Assembly (NCBI GenBank): GCA_976551045.1
Contig: CDPCPM010000363.1
Coordinates: forward strand, 2,170,001 to 2,234,000
DNA length: 64,000 nt
Source of the DNA: Glaucostegus cemiculus
Taxonomy: Eukaryota
Reading direction: 5' to 3'
Shown: piece after piece, positions 1,734-58,510 of the stretch
Position numbering within the stretch: position 1 is the first letter of the stretch
Layout: every line of letters begins with the position of its first letter
Position numbers and translations under genes: made by a program
The notes under the pieces: model-generated
What the model was told of the DNA's origin: nothing
Seen by the model: the letters and a program-made list of their open reading frames with translations, nothing else
Database searches by the model: none

Positions 1734-1745
1734 TGTCACGGAGTA

Positions 1746-2353
1746 CAAAGATGCAAGTGGCTGCAGATGCAAAAAATAAACTGCTGGAGGAACTCAGCAG
1801 GTTAGGCAGCATCTGTGGAGGCAAAGGGATGGTCGGTCTCTCAGGTCGAGACACTGCATCAGGACTGAGTGTGCAGAGGTAAAATAACTGGTATAAAGAG
1901 GTGAAAGGGAGGGTGAAGCAGAGGCTGGTAGGTGATAGGTGGAAGCAGATAAGGGAGAGTTGATGGGCAAATGGAGACAGGTAGGGGAGGAGGAGAGGAA
2001 GGAATGGGAAAGGTGAACCACGGAGGAAGAAACCCAGATGGATAGATATGTGGGTGATAGGAAAATGGAACTGGGTGGATGGGAGGTGAGAGGAGGATAA
2101 CAGGTCTTGGTAATGGGGGGGGGGGGGGGGGGGGTGGGGGAGGTGGAAGAGATGGAAAGGCATACCCCCCAACCCCTTGTTCCTCTCTCACTCCCACCAG
2201 TTCAACCTCCTTCTCTCTCCCTTTGATCGCCTTTTCCATCCCTCATCCAACCTCTGCCAGTCCTGATGCAGGGTCTCACCCCAAAACGTCGACCACCCCC
2301 TTTGCCTCAACAGATGCTGCTCGATCTGCTGAGTTTTCCAGCTGCTTATTTTT
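1746..2353. mobile_element. Penelope-like inverted-repeat (hairpin) element
   Basis: ~98-bp inverted arms at ~1770-1868 and ~2258-2355; purine-rich then pyrimidine-rich interior; flanked by TGTCACGGAGTA (1734-1745) and TGTCACTGGAGTA (2354-2366). Confidence 0.75.
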
Positions 2354-3502
2354 TGTCACTGGAGTATCTTGGAATCCAAATCTGATCTCAAGTAATTTTG
2401 GAAGGAAAACCTTTGGAAGATTTTCTTCTTCCTCTGAACTCCTGTCAGATCTGTAACACGGCCACAGATAAAAGGGCAGCAATGCTTGTCCAGCAGTGAA
2501 TGGTGAGCGAGGTGGGAAAGCATGTGGCATTATCGGTTGAATGCCATGTGGACTGGCATCAGGTGACCTGTATTGGGATGAAATGTTGGGAGAAGAGATG
2601 AAACGTGATGATGTCACAGCCCAGAATTGGCAGAATTTGAGTGGGTCTCTGCCTTCTTCAATCAATGGCCTCACTGTAATGCACACTGACCTCAACACAG
2701 CTGGAATTACCTTTAAAATAAAAAATAGGAACAGAGTGAATACACCCTGTACAGTGTACAAATCTCAACTGGGACACAAAGGATGGCTTTATGTGAACTA
2801 AAGACTTGCCCACAAGCAAAATTGGCCTTTTCTATTAAGTGGTTGACTGCCTTAGCAGGCTTTGAATAATTGAGCGAACAGCCCTCCATGTAGAGTTGGC
2901 ACAGCAACAAGGTCCACTCTCTACCAAAGTACATCTAGCTTGACTAAGCTAACCTCACCTGCTTGTCTTGGAGAAAAGCAACATTTGACCAAAGGAGTGT
3001 GAGCGACTAAATTAAATATACACACTGCCCTGTGGAGAGAGAACCTGAAGTAGGGGAATAACATTGTGGACTTCTACTGGTAAAACTAAAGGAGACAGAC
3101 TGAGCTATGCAGGAACACGTGAAATGGTAGAAATGCCAATGACAAGACCATTTAAAAATTCAATACATACTATCACAGCATTGCCATTAATGAAACACAA
3201 AGATAGTATATTTGTGTAATGATAACGTCTAGGATATATATTAAAAAAATTGAAAATCACAAACATTTTGGAAGGTCAGTGATGTGGAGTTCTAATACTA
3301 GAGAAAGAGATTAACAGCAAATTGCACAGCAGCTTTTGGCACCTACACTGAACGTTCAAGGGAATGAGAATCTGCCCTGTCCCTTGAGAAGTGCAGCTAC
3401 CTTGGTATCTTGCTGAGAACCGGTATTCACACATGTCCAAAGGTTGATGATGCACCAGACATGTTACGCAATAAATGTGGGACAGGTGATCCAAGCTTGA
3501 AC

Positions 3503-4010
3503 TCAAATACAGGAAGGAGGTGGAAGCTTTGGAAAGGGTGCAGAAGTGGTTAATCAGGATGCTGTCTGGATTAGAGGGTATGAGCTATAACGAGAGATCG
3601 GACAAACTTGGTTTGTTTTCTATGGAGCGTCGAAAGCTGAAGGGAGACCTGATAGAAATTTATAAGATTATGAGAGGCATAGATACGGTAGACAGTCATA
3701 ATCTTTTTCCCTTGGTGGAAATGTCAGGTATGAGAGGACATGAATTTAAGTTGAGAGGGGGAAAGTTTAAGGGAGGTATGTGGGGCATTTTTTTTAAACA
3801 CAGAGTGGTAGGTGGCTGGAACTGTCTGCCAGGGGGAGTAGTGGAAGCATGTATGATAGGGGCATTTAAAAGGCTGTTAGACATATGAACATGCAGGGAA
3901 TGGAGGGACATGGATCACGTGCAGGCAGATGAGTATTAGTTTAATTTGGCATTGTGTTCTGTGCAGATGTTGTGGGCCAGGGGCCTGTTCCTGTGCTGTA
4001 TTGTTCTATG
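3503..4010 (+). mobile_element. CR1/HER1 LINE 3' fragment
   Basis: ORF 3520-3888 (LERVQ..SY.ER...LGLFS.ERR.L.GDLIE.YKIMRG..WN.LP) plus tail GGGCCTGTTCCTGTGCTGTATTGTTCTATG. Confidence 0.9.
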
Positions 4011-5952: not shown

Positions 5953-6054
5953 AAGGAAGGCCAGGGACAAAATGACTCATTTTCAGGTTGGCAGGTTATG
6001 GGGTGCTTCAACAATTAGTGGTGGGATGCCAGCCATTTATATTCTATGTTAATT

Positions 6055-6262
6055 GCACAAAACATTGGAAATACTCAGCAGGTCAGGCCACATATGTGGG
6101 AAGAGAAACAGAGTTAATGGTTCAGTTTGAAGACCATTTGTCAGAACAGGATCTTCCACCTGAAATGTCAGCTCTGTTTCTCTACCATACATGCAGCCTG
6201 ATCAGAGTATTTCTTGAATTTTCTATTTTTATTTTAGATTTCCAGCATCTGCAGTTTTTTTT
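6055..6262. mobile_element. Short Penelope-like hairpin element
   Basis: TGGAAATACTCAGCAGGTCAGG..GAGAAACAGAG mirrored by CTCTGTTTCTCT..TTCCAGCATCTGCAG. Confidence 0.6.
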
Positions 6263-7985: not shown

Positions 7986-9162
7986 ATCCAAGCCAAAGGT
8001 GGCTGCAGAACTAATGTGGGGTTAATGTGGATATGTACAATGGCAGCCCTGGATACTGTGGGCAGAAGGGTGTGCTTCTGTGCTGTGACTCTCTAGAGCC
8101 CAAAGGAATCCAATGAAAAAAACTGCACATCTTCAAGCTTATAAACATAAGACTTAGGTACAGCCCATACATACGAGCCTTTGGGAGACCACCGGCAGCT
8201 GTGGGGCTGTAGGCACTTTCTGCCCTGTGGGAACTTGTTTGTGGCCGCATTTCTGATTTGCAAATTGTTTGGGTTACAAACAGTTCACAGAAATGGAACC
8301 CTGCCATAGCCTGGGGAGGACCTGTATTTCAACAGAACACTTCAGTGTTTTTGAAATGGAGTTACTGATATAATGAAGGAAAAGCAATACACATGGGATG
8401 CAGCAAGAGCAAGTCATGCTGCTTTGGGCTAAATACTGGCCAGGATTTCTGTAGAACTCCCCTGATCTTTGCAAGGAGCCGTGACGTCTCTCAGGCAGAT
8501 AGGCAGGACTTTGGTCCAATGCCACTTGTTCAGTTCTCCAGCAGTGTACCATTCCCTCTGTTCCCCAGGATAAATGTCCTCCCAGCCTCCAGTTGTCAAT
8601 CTTCCTCAGAATCATTTCATCTTATTTCAATAAATCTCTTTTCATTTTTCCCGAAGAGTATAACCTCATATTTACCTGCATTATACTCCATCTACCTAAC
8701 CTACTACCACACTCACTCATGAGTGATCTCAAGTGGGAGTTGAATGCAGCTCCTGATCACACCCAATACAGGTCTGCGGAGACTCAAGAGAAGCTGGGAT
8801 CACCGATATAGAGAGAAACTCAAAGGACTTGGCACTCTCCCTGAGGGACCAGACTCTTGAAGGTTTTTAAGGACTGGAAGACTCTGCAAAGTAAATTGAC
8901 AAGAGGAGGACATTATGGCTTCTGGTAAAATAAAGGAAGTTTTTGCTTTAAAAGGTACGGTTGCAACATGAATGCTGTACCCAATATTGCAATTCTATCT
9001 ATAAAAGAGCACACAAGTCCTTGAAAAAGGAAAAGGATACAGGGAACTGGGACAATTGGGACTAGGGTAGGAAGCCCCAGTTAAAGCGTTGATATTAGTA
9101 TGATAGATTCCTGTTAAAGTTGTTAGTTCTGCTCTTATAAAGTACATCAGTTTATCCTTTAC

Positions 9163-9393
9163 CTTTAAATAGGATCCAAAATATTTGGTTACATAAGGAC
9201 TATCACACTGGCTGAGGACTGTTATCTCCTGTTGAATATCTTCAATCTCATCCTCAGCTTCTTCTAGATCGATAATTTTGATAGCAACTACTTGTTGTGT
9301 CCGATTATCAATTCCTTTGAAGACTTCACCAAAAGACCCCTTTCCAATCCGTTCCAGTTTCGTGAACAGTCCTTCAGGGTCTGCCCGATGATT
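9163..9393 (-). CDS. STK26: STK26/MST4 second coding exon, kinase N-lobe (77 aa)
   Basis: [77 protein letters not shown]: Gly-rich loop, VAIK lysine, GCK-III signature. Acceptor TTTCTTCTGTCCTCAG|AAT and donor AAG|GTAAAG; 231 nt, phase 0/0. '[10 protein letters not shown]' and the first exon favour STK26 over STK24/STK25. Confidence 0.96.
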
Positions 9394-12419: not shown

Positions 12420-14120
12420 TGGTGATTTGGACTTTCAGAATGCCAGGCAAAATTAGAATGATACACAGGGTTAGAGGTACAGCAGCATGGATTGGTGATC
12501 GGATAGGAGGAAAAATGGGGTCATTTTCAGGAAGGAAAGCTTGGTGAATGTGGGACCATATGTAATACATCCAAGTCTGTCAATGATACAAAGCTGGTCA
12601 GCAGTGTGGGTTGTGAGGAGGATGCAGAGGCTTACAGGGGGGATCTGGGTGGGCAAGGACATGACAGTGCCGACATGGCAGATTGAATATAATGTGGAAA
12701 AATACAAGGAAATGCACTTTGGTAATAAAAGTGAAAGGTGTAGAAGTCTTTTCAGGAAAAAAAAGGAAAAAGACTGAATGGTGTTGCTGTTCAGAGGACC
12801 CAAATTTCCCTGTAAATGAGTCACTGAAAGTCAATGTGCAAGTACAAGCAAACAAGAAGGTAAACCATATGTTGGAGAGACAAGAGACTGCAGATGCTGG
12901 AATCTGGAGCAATACACATACTGCTGGAAGAACTCAGCAAGTCGGGAATTATCTGTGGAGGGAAATGGATAGTCGATGTTTTGGATTGAGGGCCTTCATC
13001 TGGACTGAAAAATAGGGGGGAGACAGCCAGCAATAGGATTTGTGCATACAATGATAGGCTACATTCTGCATTTACATAGAGTCTTGGTAAGACAGATATA
13101 GGGGAAGGGGTGGATCAAGAGCTGGGAAGCTATAGGTGGATCTGGGTGAGGAGGGGTGATAGGCAGATGGAGAAGGGAAGAATGGAAATAGCGACAGAGG
13201 CTGGGAGATGTTAGGTGGATGCAACAAATGGCTCCAGATGATGGAATCTGATAGAAAAGAAAGGTGGAGCATAGAACCAAATAAAGGAGGTGGGGAGAGC
13301 AGATGGGAACAGGGGTAGGGTCACAGTGGGAGGAGTGTGTGGGTGATGGGCAGATAGAGTGGATGGAGGAGAAAGAAACAGGGTGATGGGACATGGGGTG
13401 GATGTTGGACGAAATGGGTAGATCAGGAGCAGAGGAAAAAGGGGACAGAGGGGGAGCAGGTTACCTGAAACTGGAGAACTCAATGTTCCTGCTGTCAGCT
13501 TAGGGTTGACCGTATGTTGGTCTTCATTGCAATAGGATTTGTGCATATGATGATAGGCTACATACTGCATTTATATAGAGTCTTGGTGAAACCACATCTG
13601 GAATACCATGTACGGGTCTGACATTCTCATTTGTCATGGAGAGCAAAGTGAGGGTTCACCAGACAGGTTCCTGGGATGGAAGGTTTGCCATGTGAGGAGA
13701 GATAAGGAGATGGGATCTGTAATCTCCAGTGTTTAGAAGAACGAGAGGTGATTTCACTGAAACATAAACTTCTTCATGGGTTGACAGGGTATACGTGGGC
13801 ATGATGTTTCCACTGGCTGATGCGTCCTCAACCATGGGTCACTGTCTTAAAACAGGGGCTTAGCCTTTCAGCACCACAAGGAAGAGAAACGTCTTCACCC
13901 AAAGGGTGGTAAATCTTTGGAATTCTCTACTGCAGAGGGTGGTGGAGTCTTTGTCCCGAGTATGTTTGAGATGAATGCTGATAGATTTTTAGTTATTAAA
14001 GGAATCAAAGAATATGCATTTAATGCAGGAAAGCTGTGCTGGGGTAAAAGATCATTCACAGTAATATTTAATGGCAGACCAGGAATGGGGGCCAAATGGC
14101 CTCTGCTGCTTCAATTACCC
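12420..14120 (+). mobile_element. CR1 LINE fragment interrupted by a Penelope-like insertion
   Basis: WQIEYNVEK..MHFG, LV.PHLEY and WNSL motifs; 3' tail near 14090-14120. Confidence 0.75.
12876..13508 (-). mobile_element. Penelope-like element 3' end with 12-bp TSD
   Basis: On the minus strand the ORF end NIEFSSFR* (~13460-13487) is followed by a pyrimidine-rich repeat and a CTGAGTTCTTCCAGCA..CCAGCATCTGCAGTCTC tail. TSD ACCATATGTTGG (12864-12875) / ACCGTATGTTGG (13509-13520). Confidence 0.75.
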
Positions 14121-14721
14121 ATGTTAATACACTCCTGTCTACAAGAAGTTTCCAAGCATTCAACAAACATCTGTACAACTGTGTTCACACTGGGACTAAT
14201 GGGTGTTTGCTGCACTCATTACCTTCAAGCTGCAGGCAGAGTTTTGAATCTTTAACTGACTGCTTTGCCATTTCATTTTGTTCTACACCTCATTCATTTT
14301 CAACAAGCCTTGAATGCCTGAAGGTTAAAAGGAGGAAAACTCTATCATGTGGAAATAGGATTTAAAATGTCCTCTACCCTTCCCATTCTTCAAGACAGAA
14401 AAGAACTTTAATCTACACCACATGTTCTCGACCCAGGTTTCTGACTGTGTTACACCAGTTCTAACATAGGCCACACCTAAGGTGTCTGCCTGATTTTACC
14501 TCCCAGGTGCTCACACACACTATGTATTTCAAGAGTTTTGTTTATTCTCTTCCAGTTCTGTTCTTCTCCTTTTGCGCCCCTCCCCGAAACCATGCTCCCA
14601 TTTTATTTGGGTGAGACTTCAAGTTGTGGCTTGTTCAAGCAGAAATGCCGTCCCGGAAGGTGATACAACCATGGCTTCTGGGATGTGACGCACAAGTCTG
14701 CTCACATTCACTGGGAGGCGG

Positions 14722-15305
14722 ATAGTGCAACTCATGTTGCAGCCGTATGAAACTTTGGTCTCCCCACATTTGGATTATTGTACTCAGTTCTGGTCACTGC
14801 ATTACAGGAAAGATGTGGAAGCTTTGGAAAGGTGCAGAGGAGGTTCACTGGGATGCTACCTGGATCAGAGAGCATTAGCTAGAAGGAGAGATTGGACAGA
14901 ATTGGATTTTTTTTCTCTGGAGTGTCAGAGGCTGGGGGACACCCGAGAAAATTATAAAGTTATGAGAGGCATAGATAGGGTAGATATTCAGAGTATCTTT
15001 CCCAGGGTAGAAATGTCAAACATTAGTGGGCATAGCTTTAAGGTGAGAGGGGGAAGATGTTTCACACAGAGACCGGTAGGTGCCTGGAATGCACTGCCAG
15101 GGGAGGTGGTGGAAGTAGATACAATAGCAACATTTAAAGAGGCATTTGGACAAGCACATGAACAGGCAGGGGAATTGGGGGGGGGGGGGGGGGGGTGGAA
15201 TATGGATCACATGCAGGCAGATGGGGATTAGTTTCACTTGGCATCATGCTCAGCACAGACATTGTGGGCCGAAGGTCCTGTTTCTGTGCTGTACAGTTCT
15301 ATGTT
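14722..15305 (+). mobile_element. CR1/HER1 LINE 3' fragment
   Basis: ORF 14725-15231 (LVSPHLDYCTQFWS, YKVMRGIDRV, WNALP) and tail. Confidence 0.9.
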
Positions 15306-15704: not shown

Positions 15705-15978
15705 CGTAGGAGGCTATTCAGTCCATTGAGTCTATGCCATTCCATTCTCCCAACATTCCCATCAATGGTCCCCCAGATTCTACCACTCACCTACAGACCA
15801 GGGGCCAATTTACTTACCAACCCACACATCTTTGGAATGTGGGAGGAAACCGGAGCACCCAAAGGAAACCCACACTGTGTCAGGGAGAACATGCAAACTC
15901 CACACAGACAGCAGCCGAGGTCAGCATTGAACCCGGGTCCCTGTGGCTGTGAGGCAGCAGATCTGCTGCGCCACTGTG
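15705..15978 (-). mobile_element. HE1-type V-SINE
   Basis: Well-preserved V-domain (plus strand TTTGGAATGTGGGAGGAAACCGGAGCACCC) and head. Confidence 0.85.
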
Positions 15979-21245: not shown

Positions 21246-22200
21246 TGGCCAGATTCTGCTCTAACTCCATCTACAAGCTTGCAGATGATAGCACCTTTGT
21301 AGGTCATATCTCAAACAGAGATAAGTCAGAGTACAGGAAGGAGATAGAGAGCTTAGTGGAATGGTGTCATGACAATAACCTTTCCTTCAATGTCAACAAA
21401 AGAGCTGGTCATTGACTTTAGGAAAGGGGGGGGTGTACATGCATCTGTTTACATCAATGGTGCTGAGGTCGAGAGGGTTAAGAGCTTCAAGTTCCAGGAA
21501 GTGAATATCACCAACAGCCTGTCCAGGTCAAATCACGCAGATGCCACGGCCAAGAAAGCTCACCAGCACTTCTACTTCCTCAGGAGACTAAAGAAATTTG
21601 GGTTGTCCCTTTTGACTCTCACCAACTTTTACCAATACACCACAGAAAGCATCCTAGCTGGATGTATCATGGCTTGGTACGGCAACTGCTCTGCCCAGGA
21701 CCGCAAGAAACTGCAGAGTGTTGTGGACACAGCCCAGCACATCACGGACACCAGCCTCCCCTCTTTGGACACTGTATTTACCTCTCATTGTCTTGGTGAA
21801 GCAGCCAGCATAATCAAAGACCCCACTCATCCGGGACATTCTCTCTTTTCTCCTCTTCCATCAGGTAGAAGATACAGGTGCCTGAGGGCACATACCACCA
21901 GGCTTAAGGACAGGTTCTACCCCACTGTGATAAGACTACTGAACGGTTTCTTTATACAATGAGATGGACTATGACCTCACAATCTACCTTGTTGTGACCT
22001 TGCACCTCACTGCACTTTCTCTGTAGCTGTGACACTTTACACTGTACTGTTATTGTTTTTATTTGTACTACATCAATGCACTTTATACTAACTCAAAAGT
22101 AACTGCACTGTGCAATGAATTGACCTGTATGATCGGTTTGTAAGACAAGCTTTTCACTGTACCTCAGTGCAAGTGACAATAATAAACTAATACTAATACC
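21246..22200 (+). mobile_element. Rex1/Babar LINE, 5'-truncated
   Basis: KLADD, TKELVIDFRK, KKAHQ..YFLRRLKKF, LPSGRRYR.L...TTRLKD.FYP; 3' UTR ending CACTGTACCTC..GTGACAATAATAAAC. Confidence 0.92.
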
Positions 22201-31923: not shown

Positions 31924-33107
31924 CCATTTATTGACTACAGCTCTGCCTTCAATACAATAATCCCAAATAAGCTTGTCACCAAACTCCGAGACCCAGGACT
32001 CAACACGTCCCTCTGTAACTGGATTCTTGACTTTCTAACAAACAGACCGCAATCAGTGAGGATAGACAGTAATACTTTGGGCATGATTATTCTCAACACT
32101 GGTGCCCCACAAGGCTGTGCCCTCTACTCTACTCCCTATACACTCATGACTGTGTGGCCAGATTCTGCTCTAACTCCATCTACAAGCTTGCAGATGATAG
32201 TACCTTTGTAGGCCGTATCTCAAACAGCAATGAGTCGGAGTACAGGAAGGAGATAGAGAGCTTAATGGAATGGTGTCATGACAACAAGCTTTCCCTCAAT
32301 GTCAACAAAAGAGCTGGTCATTGACTTCAGGAAAGGAGGTGGTGACATGCACCTGTCTACATCAACAGTGCTGAGGTCAAGAGGGTTGAGAGCTTCAAGT
32401 TCCTGGGAGTGAGCATCACCAACAGCCTGTCCTGGTCAAATCACATAGATGCCACGGCAAAAAAAGCTCACCAGCACCTCTACTTCCTCAGGAAGCTAAA
32501 GAAATTGGGTTTGTCCCCTTTGACACTCACCAGCTTTTATCAATGCACCTGAGAAAGCATCGCATCTGGATGTATCACGGCTTGGTACGGCAACTGCTCT
32601 GCCCGGGACCACAAGAAACTGCAGAGTTGTGGACACAGCCCAGCGCATCACGGAAACCAGCCTCCCCTCCTTGGACTCTGTATTTACCTGTCACTGTCTT
32701 GGTGCAGCAGCCAGCATAATCAAAGGCCTCACCCACCCAGGTCATTCCCTCTTCTCTCTTCTTCCATCAGGTAGAAGGTACAGGAGCCTGAGGGCACGTA
32801 ACACCAGACTTAAGGACAGCTTCTACCCCACTGTGATAACACCATTGAATGGTTCCCTTATACAATGAGATGGACTATGACCTCATGATCTACCTTGTTG
32901 CGTCTTTGCACTTTATTGCACTGCATTTTCTCTGTAGCTGTGACACTTTACTCTGTACTGTTATTGTTTTTACCTCTACTACATCAATGCACTCTGTACT
33001 AACTCAATGTAACTGCACAGTGTAATGAATTGTCCTGTACAATTGGTATGCAAGGCAAGTTTTTCCACTGTACCTCTGTAAAGTGACAATAATAAACCAA
33101 TACCAAT
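31924..33107 (+). mobile_element. Rex1/Babar LINE, 5'-truncated
   Basis: [41 protein letters not shown], then the same C-terminus and 3' UTR as 21246-22200. Confidence 0.93.
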
Positions 33108-40959: not shown

Positions 40960-41810
40960 CTTGCACTATCAGGGACAGAGTACAGGAAGGAGACAGCAGA
41001 GTAGCATGGTGTCAAGACAACTACCTCTCCCTCAATATCAGCAAACCAAAAGAGCTGGTCATTGACTTCAGGAAGTGGGGCACAGCACATGCCCATCTGC
41101 AATCAATGGTGCTGAGGTGGAGGTGGCTGAGACCTTCAAGTTCCTTGGTGTAAGTAGCACCAACAGTTTGTCCTGGTCCAGCCACGTGGGCATTATAGCC
41201 AAGAAAGCAGACCAGCAGCTCTACTTCGTCAGAAGGCTAAGGAAATTCAGCATGTCCCTGATGACTCTCACCAATTTTTAGATGCATCATAGAAAGCATT
41301 CGATCTGGAAGCATCATGGCTTGCTGTGGCACCAATCTTGGTCTGCCCAAGACCGCAAAAAAACTGCAGAGAATTGTGAACATAACCCAGTCCATCACAA
41401 AAACCAGACTCCTCTCCATTGACTCTGTCCACACTTCCCACTGCCTCGGGAAAGCAGCCAATATAATAAGAATCCCTCCCACCCTGGTCATTTTCTCTTC
41501 TCTCCCCCATTGGGTAGAAGATACAAAAAGTTGAGAGCATGTACCATAAACTCAAGGACAGTTTCTATCCTGTTATTATAAGACTTGAATCTCACACGGT
41601 AAAGATGAACTCTTGATCTCTCAACCTACCGCGTCATGGCCCTTACACTTTATTTGCCTATCTGTACTTTCCCTGTAATTTTAGCACTATATTCTGCTTC
41701 CTTTTGCACAACCTCAGAGTACTTATCTATGGAATGATCTGTCTGGATGACATGCAAAACAAAAGCTTTTCACTGTATCTTGGTACATGTGATAATAATA
41801 AACCAGTTAC
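40960..41810 (+). mobile_element. Rex1/Babar LINE 3' fragment (older or different subfamily)
   Basis: WCQDNYLSLNISKPKELVIDFRK, FKFLGV, LYFVRRLRKF; tail CTTTTCACTGTATCTTGGTACATGTGATAATAATAAACC. Confidence 0.88.
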
Positions 41811-44765: not shown

Positions 44766-44770
44766 AAGAC

Positions 44771-44979
44771 TTGAAATGCTGGAGGAACTCAGTGGGTCAA
44801 GCGGCACCCGTGAAAGAAAATGGACAGTCGATGTGTCGGGTTGAGACCCTTCATCCAGATGAAGGGTCTCAGCTCAAAACTCCAATTGTCCATTTACATC
44901 CAAAGATGCTACCTGACCCACTGAGTTCCTCCAGCATCTCGTGTGTTGTTCCAGATTCCAGCAACTGCAGCCTCGTGTC
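44771..44979. mobile_element. Penelope-like palindromic hairpin element
   Basis: TGCTGGAGGAACTCAGTGGGTCA..GAGACCCTTCATC mirrored by GATGAAGGGTCTC..TGACCCACTGAGTTCCTCCAGCA, centred at ~44856. Confidence 0.8.
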
Positions 44980-54465: not shown

Positions 54466-54844
54466 TACAGAAATACCAGGAACAAGAAAGTGTTTTGAAG
54501 AGTGTGTTCTATTTCTTTAACGTATTTATATAGAACTGTCAACCGGTAAAGCAACAAGCAACACAAGACACAAAGAGGATTGTAATCAGATCAAAGTTGA
54601 CTCAGCCTCATAAAGGAATGAGGGCAGGAAGAGACAAGTGGCAAAGAATGCATTTAACATGGTGGGAGTCAGTGGTGGTAGTAATAGAGAGACAGAGACA
54701 GAAAAGAGAGAGAGAGAGAATCGAGGACATAAACCAAAAGCACTAAGTTCTTCATTATCAGAAGAGAGGAGATAACAGGAAGAATGACAGGCCGGATATT
54801 TCATGATTTAAACTCTGTTGCAAAGTTCTGAGCCACTCTGATAC

Positions 54845-54972
54845 CGTTTCAGGGCTTCAACCCAACACATTGACAATCCATTTTCCCTCACAGATGCTGC
54901 TTGTCCCACTGAACTCCTCCAGCAGATTGTTTGTTGCTCCAGATCCCAGCATCTGCAGTCTCTTGTGTCTCC
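54845..54972 (+). mobile_element. Penelope-like 3' terminal fragment
   Basis: CACAGATGCTGC..CTGAACTCCTCCAGCA..CCAGCATCTGCAGTCTCTTGTGTCTC. Confidence 0.65.
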
Positions 54973-55849
54973 CTGGTTCAATCCTTGCACAGTACTGAGT
55001 TGGATGACCCTGGCCACCACATCACCAGCAATTCTAGAACAGTACTCAGTGAGAGTTGGATGAGGGAAAGGAAACATTTTTAAAAAGGAAGAGATTTATA
55101 GTGCTTCTTATCACATCTCAGAAACAACTTCTGGGTGGAACTTCATGTATGACAATCACTTCACTCCAGGGGCAGTGACTGAAGTTACCTGCAATAATAG
55201 TGCATTTGCATTTATCTGGAGCCTTTAACACAATAATGTATCCCAATGTATTTCATGAGAATGAAGTAAACACCCCAGTGAATGAAGAGGCAGGTGATGA
55301 GGAGGTTTTTAAAGAAGTGCCGAGATATAGGTAGCAACTTACAGGATTAGGGCCTGGTAGCTTATCTAATGTTCAGGAAGATCTCACAAATGCCAAGGAA
55401 GTGATTGGCCAGTTAGTTTGCCTTCTGGGGGTGACTGAGAAATGGTGGACGAAAATTCAGTTGAATTTCCTGCCCTCCAAGCTGGGCATGTGACACAAGG
55501 AATGTACCTCTAACTTAGTTTTGTCCTACAGCGGCAGCCATGAGTGGAGTTAAACTCATCTCCTTCTGGGGTAGACTGAGCCAAGTCATTCAGTGAGTCC
55601 CACAATGGAAACAGATAGTGTGAACTTCAGGTAGCAATGTAATTACACAGATTCACACAGAGCCAAGGCAGTCAATTTATACCAGAGTTCGTGATGCACA
55701 GGTTTGTCCTCCTGCTCCCATGGTAGTCCTAACAGATGATACAAAAGTGATGCAACATGGTCAGTAAAGATAATGCACTAGCAACAGCGCAAATTAGCTT
55801 AAGAGCCAATGCCTGGATTTGTATCTATATGCATTATATTCAGCTCCTC

Positions 55850-57825: not shown

Positions 57826-58510
57826 CACATGTTTCACTCTCGAACTTACTCCATATACATAGATATCTCATTCAGTAAGTTACCCTACATACATGTGTAT
57901 TTTATTCTAAAAGTTACTCAATATACATGCATGTTTCACTATAAGTTAAGGTAAGATAAGGTATCTTTATTAGTCACATGTACATCAAAACACACAGTGA
58001 AATACATCTTTTTACGGAGTGATTTGGGGGGGGAGGTGGGGGCAGCCCGCAAGTGTCGCCACGCTTCTGGCGCCAACATAGCATGCCCACAACTTCCTAA
58101 TCTGTACATCTTTGGAATGTGGGAGGAAACCGGAGCACCTGAAGGAAACCCATGCAGATACGGGGAAGACGTAAAAACTCCTTACAGACAGTGGCTGGAC
58201 TTGAACCCCGGTCGCTGGCACTGTCAAGCATTACGCTAACCGCCACACTACCATGCCTGCACATAGGATAGTTACTCTATATACATCCACATTTCAATCT
58301 GGAAGTTACTTTCTATACATGCATGTTTCACTCTAGAAGTTACAATCGGTTTGCAAGACAAGTTTTTCACTGTACCTCAGTACAAGTAACAATAATAAAC
58401 CAAACCTGTACACACACGTTTCACTCTTGAAGTTACTCTACATACATGTCTGCTTCAGTGTAGAAGTTACTCCATATGCATACATGCTTTATTCTAGAGG
58501 TTATTCTATA
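57826..58510. repeat. Degenerate ~34-bp minisatellite with two nested insertions
   Basis: Unit ~ATGTTTCACTCTAGAAGTTACTCTATATACATGC, roughly 9-10 copies. Confidence 0.8.
57948..58257 (-). mobile_element. V-domain SINE of a second family (non-HE1 head and tail)
   Basis: Head GGCATGGTAGTGTGGCGGTTAGCG..GGTTCAAGTCC, V-domain, tail TTTCACTGTGTGTTTTGATGTACATGTGACTAATAAA plus (CTTA-like)n; retains many CpGs. Confidence 0.85.

Follow-up and report, generated by a model that had tools for sequence, protein, structure and literature searches.

The feature at positions 1746-2353 of the window (the whole stretch of 64,000 nucleotides of Glaucostegus cemiculus DNA that was analysed) is an inverted Neptune-type Penelope-like element (PLE) insertion that was dead on arrival and carries relics of the minimal hammerhead ribozyme; it is mostly ordinary. 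Two 5'-truncated copies of the 3' end of the element, a left half of approximately 415 nt (1746 to about 2160) and a right half of approximately 193 nt, meet head to head within it (Table 1). The insertion is a single one, with a target-site duplication (TSD) of 12/13 nt at its edges; the limits given in the original prediction coincide exactly with this TSD, which was not mentioned there. The inverted-repeat arms that had been described were recovered, the left arm matching the right arm in reverse (1770-1880 against 2355-2250) with 78% identity over 112 nt (E 6e-18), and the arms are nested, one lying within the extent of the other. The right-arm motif is present as it had been written, with CAGTC at 2258-2262, CTGATGC from 2263 and AAAAC-GTC-GAC up to 2293; it has a C at core position 9 (2269), an A in place of G12 (2283), stems I and II of 3 bp each and the cleavage-site equivalent at 2290/2291. 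In the left-arm hammerhead both the GAAA box and the cleavage triplet are broken, and the first codons of the open reading frame (ORF) are the sole coding part of the left half. In two copies of another subfamily (L294 and L206, subfamily B), the ATG matching that of the right arm opens a frame that runs, interrupted by stops, into the N-terminus of the ORF. The copy at 1746-2353 is predicted to be inert.

Table 1. Features of the 1746-2353 insertion and sister copies in the window. Positions are those of the window.
Feature	Position	Strand	Remarks
Sequence of the insertion
TSD, left copy	1734..1745	+	12 nt; read from the sequence directly
Left half, Neptune-type Penelope 3' end, 5'-truncated	1746..2160	-	From about -293, counted from hammerhead C3, to the long tail end
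Left-arm minimal hammerhead, decayed	1830..1867	-	C3 at 1862; C at the A9 position
TATA-like box	1892..1897	-	Read from the sequence directly, function inferred; putative promoter of the pseudo-LTR (pLTR); the A at 1866, at which short family copies begin, lies 31 nt downstream
Head-to-head junction of both truncated 5' ends	2155..2164	.	Locus-specific
Right half, 5'-truncated 3' end	2161..2353	+	Spans about -100 to +90, counted from C3; short end, tail lacking
Decayed minimal hammerhead, right arm	2258..2295	+	C3 at 2263
Likely first ORF codons	2314..2353	+	ATG at 2314; the same ATG runs in frame in L294/L206
TSD, right copy	2354..2366	+	13 nt, one inserted base; read from the sequence directly
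Sister copies
Arm, oldest subfamily D	6051..6151	-	First pair of stem I is U-A, not C-G
Copy, older subfamily A	12875..13503	-	Longer 3' end
Fold-back insertion, subfamily A	44769..44974	.	Both arms begin at the hammerhead 5' edge; long end on the right only
Arm grouping with subfamily C	54841..54976	+

The sister copies that had been listed proved to be real (at 12968-13008, 44769-44974 and 6051-6151), and a profile scan of the window gave 13 arm matches. Other debris was also observed in the window: 3' ends of LINE-like reverse transcriptase (RT) sequences (21246-22197, 32155-33107, 40976-41590 and several others), LINE-like open frames (21357-21962, 3490-3888 and 14689-15231) and a second abundant short repeat (for example 15812-15911 and 58092-58191), which we take to be likely CR1/L2-type and SINE debris.

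Genome-wide searches for the hammerhead motif were carried out on 2.85 Gb using the reversed pattern as a control. The exact intact core was found in 357 copies, a count slightly inflated by some arms of loci L001-L006 and L083-L092 that carry exact intact core boxes, and in 0 copies in the control, and a loose minimal descriptor gave 8,712 matches against 112, bearing out the minimal type-I hammerhead layout that had been proposed. A 32-nt word from the downstream tail gave 8,287 genome matches against 0. The absence of a fully intact core from the window also stood: the box pattern matched three times there, never at an arm, with 1.79 matches expected by chance. Scanning the window with Rfam yielded no hammerhead and four weak matches of other families at E of at most 1, a silence that is no evidence against a motif so minimal and decayed. 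Many arms of loci L001-L006 and L083-L092 (contigs C1, C3 and C4) were seen to read CAGGC for CAGTC in helix I, and several of these loci have 0.8-1.5 kb of flank in common (L004-L006 on both sides), which likely reflects a single insertion copied along with the duplicated segment around it; the downstream sequence common to L001-L006 was considered as the start of the ORF and rejected, some of these loci sharing both flanks. A different repeat, seen at L088 (G000:C1:6820152) and in two similar C3 matches, has both hammerhead boxes with a different helix II and no obvious helix I, and lies outside the Penelope family described here.

Four subfamilies (A, B, C and D) were delineated by clustering 421 arms, a sample biased by the choice of search. 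For subfamily A, 33 copies were selected via a match to the endonuclease protein, one of them being the query locus, which the motif had initially picked out. At every core position these 33 copies have a canonical majority base, with a helix I of 5 bp, a helix II of 4 bp with an extra A before it and an ACGT palindrome, and five of the copies, the query included, are intact. The by-eye consensus of the original prediction equals this majority; however, it mixes three subfamilies and is not the ancestor of 1746-2353. The family masters A and B both have the CUGANGA and GAAA boxes, the NUH triplet, helices I and II and the palindromic helix III of a minimal type-I hammerhead. Helix cells were paired in 80.6% of cases in 15 hand-picked copies, as compared with 13-39% when slid, and covariation in the same set was no better than in shuffles (159/500); the clearest double helix change, C-G to U-A, is a single event in subfamily D. 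When single motifs were folded, stems I and II formed while the core paired in an alternative way, and the catalytic dimer form did not appear. Changed cells among the 33 subfamily-A copies numbered 26 of 66 at core CpG, 23 of 328 (7.0%) at core non-CpG positions and 324 of 3,396 (9.5%) in the flanks, and decay of these copies after insertion has been roughly neutral. The CpG decay that had been invoked for the changed cores is thus apparent in the subfamily-A copies, but it does not account for the C in CTGATGC, which belongs to subfamily C.

Both arms of 1746-2353 cluster in subfamily C, in which a C stands in place of the A after G8 and helix I has 3 bp. The best match of the left half is the 3' end of the subfamily-C copy L159 (79% over 377 aligned nt), and its identity to copies of subfamilies A and B is 69-75%. 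When the same degenerate pattern was used for both, 2,189 genome matches were obtained for the C-type core and 4,332 for the A-type; because of the 2,189 C-type matches, the C at position 9 must already have been in the parent, and the C in CTGATGC, being inherited from the subfamily, is therefore not decay. Subfamily C lacks both the A9 directly after G8 and the 4-5-bp helix I of the canonical core. A C at position 9 is expected to disable cleavage. By analogy with other altered cores the subfamily-C ribozyme would likely have been weak or dead even in the parent, while the extra nucleotide before stem II might allow the next A to serve as A9. Core changes usually cut hammerhead activity strongly (PMC3088659; the portion of that paper available contains no position-9 C variant).

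The family has many features in common with the minimal hammerheads of PLEs (PMC4209133), namely the type-I layout without a helix III loop, the short helix I, the extra nucleotide separating position 9 from position 10.1, the G10.1-C11.1 pair, the palindromic 15.2-16.2, the thousands of dispersed copies and the opposite-strand pairs 100-700 bp apart. It differs from them in the helix II of 4 bp and in subfamily C, with its position-9 C and 3-bp helix I, where the main text of that paper describes a U3-A8 variant and not this one. PLE hammerheads are described as cleaving poorly, as needing dimers, and as occurring in Xena, Poseidon and Neptune of fishes; cartilaginous fishes are unnamed in the main text, and its supplements may list such families (PMC4209133). 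Earlier papers (PMC4209133, PMC8557442, PMC3846280) already describe the motif together with the inverted layout and the tail on one side. A literature search on sharks and PLE hammerheads, with supplements outside its scope, returned only a review and a retrozyme preprint as relevant.

The Penelope origin that had been proposed was supported by parent copies carrying an RT together with a GIY-YIG endonuclease (EN) at the C-terminus. A GIY-YIG domain and RT motifs lie upstream of the arm in the longer copies, every one of which is broken, and Pfam scores for RVT_1 (22.6 bits) and GIY-YIG (18.3 bits) are both below the curated cut-offs. The first endonuclease search gave 51,938 candidates, 150 of which were scored. 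In 19/19 protein-selected loci besides the query, the arm follows the GIY-YIG match on the same strand at a distance of 220-330 nt (17 distinct; three of the 19 are near-duplicates), and it was also present in 16/16 longer stretches, one of which overlaps the first set and one of which has a deletion. Three upstream walks by protein and DNA yielded truncated or internally deleted copies and no intact full-length element, the best copy being L294. In this deleted subfamily-B copy an inverted truncated copy is followed by a pLTR with a hammerhead, the ORF start, a deleted RT, the endonuclease and a second pLTR, and the ORF runs in frame from an ATG approximately 21 nt after the cleavage site; L294 provides the sole pLTR-to-ORF junction seen. 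The arm is accordingly the pLTR end plus the first ORF codons, as in rotifer and anole PLEs. Among other subfamily-B copies, L186, L189, L195, L201, L202 and L294 were observed to have pieces of the ORF N-terminus fused to the 3' pLTR at differing points, and these fusions are internal deletions or template jumps; in L227 (about 1400-1560) and L206 the ORF N-terminal region has a tandem unit of approximately 50-60 nt with several repeats.

Judged by the domains of these other copies, the source of 1746-2353 would be an endonuclease-positive PLE with an RT plus a GIY-YIG domain at the C-terminus. A CX4CXXC linker lies between RT and EN in subfamily-A copies and in L159, where the C-type end follows the linker and the GIY-YIG domain. 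A CX2-5CxxC linker in this position is the mark of Neptune and Nematis (PMC8557442), and this Zn-finger-like linker and the C-terminal GIY-YIG are shared with the Neptune clade as described there. Assignment to Neptune depends on the linker motif, which Nematis has too, and is to be regarded as probable. Similarities to the Poseidon element PAc of Anolis (PMC11167929) include the hammerhead at the pLTR-ORF junction, the lack of RNA reads ending at the cleavage site and two 3' end points approximately 35 nt apart inside the ORF start, whereas PAc belongs to another clade and has its ATG before the cleavage site, the likely ATG here lying approximately 21 nt after it.

The formation of the inverted pairs was analysed using the first 90 of the 8,287 tail-word loci, representing 86 distinct events. 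An inverted partner was present at 36/90 loci by a loose criterion, and an abutting partner in 29 distinct events. TSD-like repeats scoring at least 8 flank 31/86 family insertions but only 1/86 swapped controls. The tail is on exactly one arm in 29/29 inverted pairs (p 2e-9 against independence), as judged with a tail threshold of 120 that was set after both modes had been viewed and with two pairs borderline. The 3' ends fall near +95 and at about +130 to +135, junctions vary by locus from -607 to +64, and many of them use short complementary words. Endonuclease-positive PLE insertions likewise show 5' truncation, an adjacent inverted 5'-truncated copy, a TSD, a tail of 30-40 bp at one end and a pLTR running into the first ORF codons (PMC8557442, PMC3846280); pLTRs at both ends of the ORF together with an inverted copy are seen here in the family (L294) rather than in 1746-2353 itself, neither half of which, unlike the insertions in the published accounts, exceeds the first ORF codons. 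The count of the one-sided tail (29/29) and the clustering of copy 5' ends at the edge of the hammerhead go beyond the material available from these two papers.

These ends are likely explained by a model in which the enzyme of the element would cut both DNA strands at staggered positions, the RNA would be copied from each cut end, one copy starting at the far site (about +130, with the tail) and the other at the near site (about +95), and the two unfinished copies would then be joined, this order of two-strand priming being deduced from the genomic ends. The protein of the anole PLE acts on both strands, cutting and extending them, and starts reverse transcription at two internal sites; in vitro it has no need of hammerhead cleavage (PMC11167929). 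The original prediction regarded the hairpins instead as non-autonomous Penelope derivatives, and one rival reading makes them a self-propagating MITE- or retrozyme-like unit that is transcribed and reinserted as a whole. The pairs are indeed common and have TSDs, their opposite-strand joints are seen among RNA reads, three loci share the junction type +40/+4, and non-autonomous PLE derivatives exist: non-LTR retrozymes, which are like the present copies non-coding, hammerhead-bearing and related to PLE pLTRs, have been reported in the single chondrichthyan sampled (bioRxiv 10.64898/2026.07.22.740005). However, retrozymes are tandem direct repeats, whereas 1746-2353 consists of one inverted pair whose cores are broken, and no sign of amplification of the unit was seen; none of 50 non-self matches (40 of 499 candidates scored) crosses its junction, the spread of the junctions from locus to locus is wide, and the recurrent +40/+4 junction lies on short microhomology. 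This reading is therefore quite improbable, and the hairpins are by-products of integration with no family of their own. Somewhat less improbable, although still unlikely, is a fold-back by self-priming (snap-back) on one template, which was proposed for rotifer PLEs from palindromes at inverted junctions (PMC3846280) and with which the complementary words at many junctions and the nested arms of 1746-2353 itself would agree. It predicts that the second arm is nested in the first, whereas in L054, L060, L247, L258 and L281 the short-tailed arm extends further 5' than the long arm and each arm has private sequence; the arms of these five loci are unnested and simple snap-back of one cDNA is therefore ruled out there. 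Joining of two unfinished copies remains the preferred account of the pairs.

A sharp 5' boundary was identified close to the hammerhead, with 18 of 59 copies that reach this region having their 5' ends within -10 to -1, as compared with 12/225 in four neighbouring 10-nt bins (p 6e-7). In truncated-looking copies, in sets that include motif-selected loci, an A is present at -4 in 15/18, 5/6 and 14/19 copies of subfamilies A, B and C, respectively, while a match at -5 is present in 6/18, 3/6 and 8/19. Few copies start at the cleavage site (+27/+28), and the boundary is distinct from it. An AT-run starts 31 nt before the -4 A in most copies of subfamilies B and C, the distance in A being 29 nt, and no TATA-like run was found in four extending copies of the oldest subfamily, D. 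The -4 A, four bases before the core, is likely to be the RNA 5' end, or transcription start, with a TATA-like box 29-31 nt upstream, and in that case run-off would account for the most frequent class of short copies. A TATA box and an Inr-like motif have been described in a rotifer pLTR (PMC3846280), and an internal promoter in D. virilis Penelope (PMC2377424). In all four subfamilies the motif is preceded by a pyrimidine tract and CAG, which would also suit a boundary set by a 3' splice site or by some block connected with the spliceosome, with the AT-run as the branch point; in D. virilis Penelope the end of an intron maps to helix I (PMC4209133), that intron lying 46 bp after the start site (PMC2377424). 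Against this, the truncated copies have by eye no common upstream exon, target DNA adjoins the arm directly in the TSD-defined loci L072 and L241, no GT..AG joint at the -4 site is among the RNA joints listed and the AT-run is at the usual TATA distance, so that a splice-related boundary is rather doubtful and a transcription start is favoured. The origin of the upstream flank by splicing of a host exon was rejected where TSDs adjoin the arm.

With the -4 A as a transcription start, it is conceivable, though still short of probable, that a core-inactivated Neptune subfamily spread to thousands of copies, its motif being retained for its place at the promoter, where its bases are transcribed first, and as the region of RT docking rather than as a ribozyme, and that the commonest insertions are strong-stop-like run-off cDNAs. 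The literature search, with most subscription papers and supplements outside its scope, returned no paper testing a position-9 variant and none on the run-off idea.

Activity at the locus was considered using RNA reads from three runs of one study, chosen by species label and possibly not from the species of the window. Family arms are abundant in these reads, with both strands covered, and reads that pass the tail into the ORF start are approximately 1000-fold rarer than reads on the arm. No pile-up of read starts or ends on the arm, whether at the cleavage site or at a -4 start, was seen in the three runs, which is weak evidence on self-cleavage because passive transcripts dominate. A kinase exon of the STK24/MST4/STK25 group was identified at 9160-9378 on the reverse strand (best E 7e-40), because of which the 1746-2353 element may be intronic; a GC-rich stretch near 50-52 kb was also noted and might be the promoter region of the kinase. 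An intronic ribozyme or regulatory RNA hairpin at this site could draw on that exon, on the long hairpin of -272 kcal/mol into which the whole 1746-2353 unit is predicted to fold (calculated on its own sequence only) and on the plentiful arms in the RNA of a relative. However, both cores are broken, decay at core non-CpG positions and in the flanks of subfamily A is about alike, the reads lie on both strands with no pile-up of ends and the arm-to-arm mismatches have no A-to-G skew (3 vs 3), making an active relic highly improbable; RNA editing of the hairpin was rejected for want of such a skew. As a whole, the evidence is best explained, with high confidence, by a single decayed head-to-head Neptune insertion within a family that includes a core-altered subfamily, the copy at 1746-2353 being predicted to be inert.

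The locus itself matters little, as it is decayed retrotransposon debris, and the remaining interest is at the level of the family, which offers a large natural collection of products of Penelope integration, with a core-altered yet amplified subfamily, a one-sided tail and a likely transcription-start boundary. The strict one-sidedness of the tail and the sharp 5' boundary limit the ways in which the RNA may start and the two cDNAs may be primed. The role of the PLE hammerhead has been called unclear (PMC8557442), and the amplification of canonical (A and B) and altered (C) cores in one genome makes it testable; if the spread of a core-inactivated subfamily is true, it would constitute a natural in vivo test showing that Penelope can transpose without hammerhead cleavage.
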